From sequence record X15714.1: a stretch of DNA of 276 nucleotides; one strand, 5' to 3'. The DNA is from a phage. Position numbers and translations under genes: made by a program. The notes below the pieces were generated by a model that was not told where the DNA came from, ran no database searches, and saw only the letters and a program-made list of their open reading frames with translations. Below, one piece after another: positions 1 through 276 of the stretch. Each line of letters opens with the position of its first letter. Position 1 is the first letter of the stretch.

Positions 1-2
1 CT

Positions 3-149
3 GTTGATATTCATCCTCGTACTTCTGGTAATAATGTTTTTGTTGGTGTGATTTGTTCTAGCGCTAAATGGACCTCCGGTCGTGTGATTGGTACCATCGC
101 TACGACTCAGGTTATTCATGAATACCAAGTCCTTCAGCCGCTTAAATAA
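3..149 (+). CDS. G: Major spike protein G (Microviridae), C-terminal fragment; 5' end lies upstream of the window
   Basis: Frame 3 is open from position 3 to TAA at 147-149 and translates to [48 protein letters not shown]. From memory, phiX174 G ends ...[46 protein letters not shown]; the shared PRT-GNNV-VG core and identical LQPLK terminus indicate homology at roughly 50% identity. 30 of 48 sense codons end in T (my count), typical of microvirus coding sequence. The other two + frames hit stops early (TGA 5-7, TGA 49-51). Confidence 0.85.
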
Positions 150-176
150 AAGGCTGCCGCACTCCCGGTTAGATGC

Positions 177-194
177 CTGCCCAGTGTAGGGCAG
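177..194 (+). repeat. Hairpin A: 6-bp perfect stem (CTGCCC / GGGCAG) with 6-nt loop AGTGTA
   Basis: Read directly: 177-182 CTGCCC pairs with 189-194 GGGCAG, five of six pairs G:C. It would form in the single-stranded viral (+) DNA and in the mRNA. Confidence 0.65.
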
Positions 195-206
195 AACTAG
201 GAACGT

Positions 207-227
207 GGAAGGCGTTAGCCGCCTTCC
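207..227 (+). repeat. Hairpin B: 8-bp perfect stem (GGAAGGCG / CGCCTTCC) with 5-nt loop TTAGC; candidate origin stem-loop I
   Basis: Read directly: 207-214 GGAAGGCG pairs with 220-227 CGCCTTCC. It is followed by CTCCTGCTAAGCC, not a T-run, so it is not a canonical intrinsic terminator. A CTG lies 4 nt 3' of the stem. Confidence 0.7.
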
Positions 228-230
228 CTC

Positions 231-233
231 CTG
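231..233 (+). other. CTG trinucleotide; candidate primase initiation site on the viral-strand template
   Basis: DnaG primase initiates opposite the T of a template 5'-CTG-3'. This CTG sits just 3' of hairpin B. A primer started opposite T232 would read 5'-AGGAGGGAAGGCGGCUAACGCCUUCC-3' and copy hairpin B. As I recall it, the G4 origin primer begins pppAGUAGGG..., which is similar. CTG is a common trinucleotide, so position alone is weak evidence. Confidence 0.35.
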
Positions 234-244
234 CTAAGCCCAAA

Positions 245-250
245 AAGGAG
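245..250 (+). promoter_or_regulatory. Shine-Dalgarno sequence (AAGGAG) for gene H
   Basis: AAGGAG at 245-250 lies 8 nt upstream of the ATG at 259-261, a canonical spacing for an enterobacterial ribosome-binding site. Confidence 0.6.
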
Positions 251-258
251 TTACAGCG

Positions 259-276
259 ATGTTAGGTGCCGTTGTT
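259..276 (+). CDS. H: DNA pilot / minor spike protein H, N-terminal fragment (first 6 codons; continues beyond the window)
   Basis: ATG at 259 with an upstream SD; translates to MLGAVV. H follows G in all phiX174-like microviruses, and phiX174 H begins MFGAIAGG (from memory), so the M-x-G-A-[IV] start is consistent. Six codons give no statistical support on their own. Confidence 0.55.

Follow-up and report, generated by a model that had tools for sequence, protein, structure and literature searches.

Synthesis of the complementary strand of phiX174 needs the PriA primosome, while the origin in the G/H spacer of alpha3, St-1 and phiK and its counterpart in G4 have served as textbook examples of primase substrates from the late 1970s onwards. 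To judge from its title, the report of Sims et al. 1979 is said to have found the negative-strand origin of St-1, phiK and alpha3 to be dnaG-dependent, and papers from 1979 and 1992 reportedly placed the origins of alpha3, phiK and St-1 between genes G and H. At the G4 origin (G4ori), primase and SSB alone suffice for priming, which starts at the T of a 5'-CTG-3' lying 3' of three stem-loops and yields a primer of up to 28 nt (PMC6783573). The three stem-loops place two primase molecules at an optimal distance from each other, and the same geometry also phases SSB (PMC6783573). The St-1/alpha3 sequence has likewise been treated as a primase origin with a Hairpin I containing GCGTTAGC, in work citing Sims, Capon and Dressler 1979, J Biol Chem (PMC13037366), where GCGTTAGC carries a mini-hairpin motif (GCGNNAGC) reported to be unusually stable and poorly bound by SSB (PMC13037366).

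A first-pass annotation had proposed that the G/H spacer in the 276-nt window (the whole stretch of DNA analysed here) is a candidate primase-dependent complementary-strand origin. Comparison with the G4 and alpha3 origins led us to read bases 150-258 as the complementary (negative) strand origin of coliphage alpha3, of the G4 type, with priming there probably reduced by an internal 26-nt deletion, a reading to which we assign a probability of about 85%.

The window matches coliphage alpha3 except for one 26-nt gap

A search of the phage collection matched the window to coliphage alpha3 NC_001330 4811-5112, from the end of gene G to the start of gene H. The 91.4% identity reported by this search is misleading, because all 276 window bases match alpha3 and the whole difference is one 26-nt gap at alpha3 5006-5031, so that window 1-195 corresponds exactly to alpha3 4811-5005 and window 196-276 to alpha3 5032-5112. 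The 3' end of gene G (major spike protein) occupies 1-149 on the + strand, is 100% identical to alpha3 NC_001330 4811-4959 and ends in ...QPLK, followed by a TAA stop at 147-149, which is also the end of the annotated alpha3 G CDS. Gene H (minor spike/pilot protein) begins with the ATG at 259 on the + strand (259-276, MLGAVV), again identical to alpha3 and starting at the same base as the annotated H CDS. Its Shine-Dalgarno sequence, AAGGAG at 245-250 on the + strand, was read from the sequence 8 nt before the ATG, and M25640.1 annotates an H ribosome_binding_site under the match.

The stop codon of G and the start codon of H, which are both on the + strand, are separated by the noncoding spacer at 150-258 (+ strand), which is identical to alpha3 4960-5005 plus 5032-5094 and collinear with the F/G origin of G4, and thus represents the alpha3 oric with an internal 26-nt deletion. 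The description of this spacer as 109 nt long, noncoding and GC-rich proved correct, as its ends agree with the annotated alpha3 CDS and its GC content is 58.7% compared with 41.6% in the G coding part. Two further features were observed within the G coding sequence: a 21-nt imperfect direct repeat (81%) at window 46-66 and 82-102, 36 nt apart (GTGTGATTTGTTCTAGCGCTA / GTGTGATTGGTACCATCGCTA), whose copies code for the similar peptides VICSSA and VIGTIA, and a perfect 12-nt palindrome, TATTCATGAATA, at window 113-124.

The spacer is homologous to the mapped origin of G4

The alpha3 G/H spacer aligned end to end with the G4 F/G spacer, giving a local score of 106 against a shuffle mean of 15.5 (z = 40), and the shortened spacer of the window still aligned locally with the G4 F/G spacer at z = 15. 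When the complete alpha3 genome was searched with the G4 oric, the only match was the G/H spacer at 4959-5091, with 76.9% identity over 134 nt. The G4 GenBank record annotates an "RNA primer of replication" at 3970-3997 and an "origin of compl. strand synthesis" at 3998, which is the G of the CTG. These two sites correspond to hairpin I plus the CTG and match window 207-233 position by position in the alignment: hairpin I is GGACGGCGAAAGCCGCCGTCC in G4, with CTA-CTG after it, and GGAAGGCGTTAGCCGCCTTCC in the window, where CTC-CTG follows in register. Homology to an experimentally mapped origin, together with identity to the alpha3 G/H spacer bar one deletion, supported the proposed primase-dependent complementary-strand origin. 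Judged by its sequence, however, the spacer is the already known dnaG-dependent negative-strand origin of St-1, phiK and alpha3 and no new candidate.

The window shares with the alpha3/St-1/phiK origin its position between G and H, 109 retained bases identical to alpha3, the GCGTTAGC loop motif, the CTG and the 5' block, but differs from alpha3 in lacking 5006-5031, in having a spacer of 109 rather than 135 nt and in having lost two pairs at the foot of stem III. With G4oric it shares collinear homology over the whole spacer, an 8-bp hairpin I, an GCGNNAGC-type loop, a CTG 3 nt past the stem and a long-range stem III. In contrast to the window origin between G and H, however, G4oric sits between F and G, and it has a real 6-bp stem-loop II, which alpha3-type phages match partly in sequence and which is wholly deleted in the window, as well as a stem III of 7+2 bp compared with 5 bp in the window. 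The G/H position in alpha3-type phages and the F/G position in G4 show that one cis element occupies different intergenic slots across Bullavirinae genera.

Hairpin I, the CTG and the predicted primer template are intact

Hairpin I is a perfect hairpin at 207-227 on the + strand, with an 8-bp stem (GGAAGGCG/CGCCTTCC, arms 207-214/220-227) and a 5-nt loop (TTAGC), and is homologous to hairpin I of G4. The GCGTTAGC mini-hairpin motif that PMC13037366 describes for St-1/alpha3 lies within it, at 212-219 on the + strand. The CTG primase start trinucleotide lies at 231-233 on the + strand, 3 nt after the 8-bp stem and thus at the same offset as in G4, and is invariant in 17 aligned sequences. Both the perfect 8-bp hairpin and the CTG just 3' of this stronger hairpin were therefore found as the first-pass annotation had described them. 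In 5000 dinucleotide-preserving shuffles of the spacer, a perfect 8-bp hairpin occurred in 0.9% (P = 0.009) and a hairpin of at least 6 bp in 15%, indicating that the 8-bp hairpin is beyond chance on sequence statistics, while the 6-bp hairpin and the overall structuredness are not.

Pairing and covariation were counted in the 17 aligned sequences, which include G4 and ID52. The stem of hairpin I was paired in 17/17 of these, with one compensatory pair (A:T to C:G). Transferring the G4 annotation through the alignment, we predict that this stable, GC-rich hairpin is the template of a 28-nt RNA primer on the - strand (205-232), 5'-AGGAGGGAAGGCGGCUAACGCCUUCCAC in the window compared with AGUAGGGACGGCGGCUUUCGCCGUCCAU in G4, and that T232 is the template of its first nucleotide. 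The predicted primer template ends 9 nt short of the deletion junction at 195/196, so that the start site and the primer template are intact. Across relatives, the hairpin I motif reads GCGCAAGC, GCGTAAGC, GCGAAAGC (G4) or GCGTAGC (ID52), and it is broken in one metagenomic relative, L026 (GCGTTAGT).

Covariation supports a long-range stem III in the 5' block

The second hairpin of the first-pass annotation, a perfect 6-bp hairpin, is present at 177-194 on the + strand (CTGCCC/GGGCAG, arms 177-182/189-194, 6-nt loop AGTGTA), but it is an alternative pairing of the 3' arm of a G4-type stem-loop III, in which CTGCC (154-158) pairs with GGCAG (190-194) across 154-194 on the + strand, and it is this long-range stem that covariation supports. 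G4 folds into an equivalent stem. In stem III, two of the five pairs have changed on both sides in a compensatory manner, C:G becoming T:A in 3 sequences and G:C becoming A:T in 2, with zero one-sided changes, and the 3' arm variants GGGCGG and GGGTGG in relatives are matched by CCGCC and CCACC in the distant arm. The nearby arm at 177-182, in contrast, is constant in relatives, with T.G or G.T mismatches in 14/17 sequences and one-sided changes only. The A:T variant of stem III probably arose at least twice independently, since it is carried by Lilleven and NC28, which belong to sub-lineages that differ otherwise. In the window, stem III lacks two extra pairs of G152/G153 with CC, because the CC partner sits in the deleted block, so that the stem is retained at 154-158/190-194 with 5 of 7 pairs.

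Thermodynamics of naked DNA favours the local hairpin (-6.1 compared with -2.0 kcal/mol for the long-range stem), whereas covariation favours the long-range stem; both may therefore form, the conserved one being the long-range stem. CTGCC is present as a direct repeat at window 154-158 and 177-181, and as both copies are complementary to GGCAG at 190-194, the origin can switch between the long-range stem and the local hairpin. In most relatives, fully Watson-Crick pairing is found only in the long-range version. The local 6-bp hairpin was rejected as a conserved structure in favour of stem III, and so were the ViennaRNA MFE pairings of alpha3 (GGCT/AGCC and CGGT/ACCG), as each showed only one-sided changes or mismatches in relatives.

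The structure chosen by RNAalifold combined the local hairpin with pairing between 165-173 and the deleted block, and its covariation term was close to zero; the latter pairing showed one compensatory change in phiK, and one break and one wobble elsewhere. The phiK co-change is C to T at window 169 and G to A at alpha3 5013, which is the G of GCCGTAC within the deleted block (columns 20 and 57 of alignment A4). This double change gives a weak hint that the 5' block (CTCCCGGTT) may pair with the deleted block (AGCCG..GGAG), weak because the pair of window 169 and alpha3 5013 is a wobble in NC28 and a mismatch in ID62.

The fold of the whole spacer as ssDNA was unremarkable (z = -1.6, with 14/200 shuffles folding equally well), and the opposite strand gave z = -2.2. 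Thus, the spacer is structured, as had been claimed, in that it holds the hairpins, but its overall fold is not significant. Folding energy, not significant on either strand alone, was dropped as evidence for an origin, and on the sequence data the support for the element comes from homology and conservation.

The deletion removes a conserved block between stem III and hairpin I

We measured conservation among 15 alpha3-type genomes, comprising 13 from GenBank, 1 from IMG/VR and 1 JGI metagenome contig. Mean pairwise identity was 95% in the spacer compared with 75% in the last 144 nt of G (68% at third positions), and a noncoding element that outconserves adjacent genes is as expected for an essential cis-acting replication signal. 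The deletion junction lies at 195-196, with a placement ambiguous by 1 nt (A), and the absent block, alpha3 5006-5031 (CCGAGCCGTACGGAGATACCCGATAA), is present in every relative. Flanked by the 5' block on one side and hairpin I on the other, these 26 nt correspond to the G4 segment that includes the loop of stem-loop II and its 5' arm. Measured from where the 5' block ends to the TGGA of hairpin I, the distance was 37 nt in 22/22 alpha3-type loci and 35 nt in two G4 loci, compared with 11 nt in the window, which thus has neither the middle block nor the 35-37-nt distance between stem III and hairpin I. The claim that the spacer has the architecture expected of such origins was accordingly only two-thirds true. 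What the deletion takes out is precisely the central third of an element whose conservation far exceeds that of the surrounding genes.

Descent from the alpha3 origin followed by inactivation through this loss, in a defective or engineered genome or through a sequencing, assembly or editing artefact, is a distinct possibility, although not the reading we favour. It would fit the equal conservation of the deleted block and the start-site block (96% mean pairwise identity each among alpha3-type genomes), the invariance of the 37- or 35-nt spacing in 24/24 relatives examined, and the 100% identity of the flanks to alpha3, which suggests a single event, recent or artificial, rather than a natural lineage that has diverged. 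The deleted copy was, moreover, found in none of the collections searched. The deletion junction sequence had no match in IMG/VR; every copy retrieved with a gapped pattern (0-30 nt) from IMG/VR and JGI metagenomes was full-length, and GTDB genomes yielded none; a pattern for shortened spacing (5-34 nt) retrieved nothing in IMG/VR; the INPHARED phage collection held no deleted variant; and the window had no match in E. coli genomes or plasmids (PLSDB).

Against inactivation, the CTG, hairpin I, the full 28-nt primer template and 5/7 stem III pairs are untouched, and the structure of the lost block is not strictly required. The alpha3-type block contains no convincing equivalent of G4 stem-loop II, its fold being weak, with only a 3-bp CGG/CCG stem without covariation. 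In the G4-like phage ID52 (locus L015 207-226, 236-242), the 3' arm of stem-loop II carries a mismatch (TCTCCG to TCTACG), so that the structure of stem-loop II is not strictly kept even within the G4 group. The loop of hairpin I in ID52 is one base shorter.

As the flanks are identical to reference alpha3, the deletion looks like a single recent event, which could have arisen by mutation in nature or in the laboratory, by engineering or as an artefact of the sequence. Neither a repeat nor a restriction-site signature accounts for the deletion, and the microhomology of the junction is only 1 nt (A). If the sequence came from a living phage, it would offer a naturally occurring test of which elements are needed by DnaG and SSB in a G4-type origin; if it is an artefact or engineered, it should be flagged before use as an alpha3 reference. 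The deletion is the only unusual feature of what is otherwise a known element, of modest value as a discovery.

Priming is probably weakened but plausible at the same site

Under our preferred reading of a G4-type origin with reduced priming, hairpin I (207-227) and the 5' stem-loop block (about 152-194) would stay folded on the SSB-coated viral single strand, and E. coli DnaG primase would bind these folded blocks directly, without the PriA primosome. The RNA primer would begin opposite T232 of the CTG at 231-233 and copy hairpin I leftwards, from 232 to about 205, after which Pol III would turn the circle into duplex DNA. The data show the identity to alpha3, the homology to the mapped G4 origin, the conservation, the covariation and the deletion, and from these we infer the nucleotide at which priming would start, the sequence of the primer and whatever activity is left. 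The window retains the CTG, hairpin I, the complete 28-nt primer template and 5/7 stem III pairs, and what has changed is the geometry between the folded blocks. With the start site, the primer template and most of stem III intact, priming is plausible at the same site, while the loss of the conserved middle block and of the 35-37-nt spacing leads us to expect a reduced efficiency, so that the origin is probably weakened.

A stronger version, which we consider unlikely, is that the window comes from a viable alpha3 variant in which stem III and hairpin I/CTG, set 11 nt apart, form a two-block origin that suffices for priming by DnaG/SSB in vivo. If this were true, the near-invariant 26-nt middle block and the 35-37-nt spacing would be conserved for some other reason, which would challenge the model of three stem-loops setting the distance between two primase molecules.

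Because the viral strand has the mRNA sense, the hairpins are also present in the G-H transcript, and the H Shine-Dalgarno sequence (245-250) lies 18 nt after hairpin I, so the hairpins might act mainly at the RNA level, by stabilising the 3' end of the G transcript, by weakly terminating it or by regulating translation of H. We regard this as very unlikely for the main function, since the G4 homologue lies between F and G, so that conservation follows the element and not the neighbouring genes, and since that homologue is a mapped primer site. Scans for terminators (T run) and promoters found none in the window or in full-length alpha3, and an Rfam scan matched no family, both of which count against an RNA-level role, although such a role is possible as a secondary function. 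A phiX174-type PriA (n') primosome assembly site, which also starts the complementary strand on a microvirus single strand but has another host requirement, is so improbable that we excluded it: nothing beyond the presence of a hairpin-containing spacer in a microvirus suggests it, the homology to the primase-only G4 origin is strong, and the window spacer shows no sequence similarity to the phiX174 site, the phiX174 F/G spacer scoring 14 and 15 on the two strands against a shuffle mean of 13.7-13.8. The G/H spacer of phiX174 itself is only 8 nt long (locus L031 724-731), compared with 134-136 nt in alpha3-type phages.
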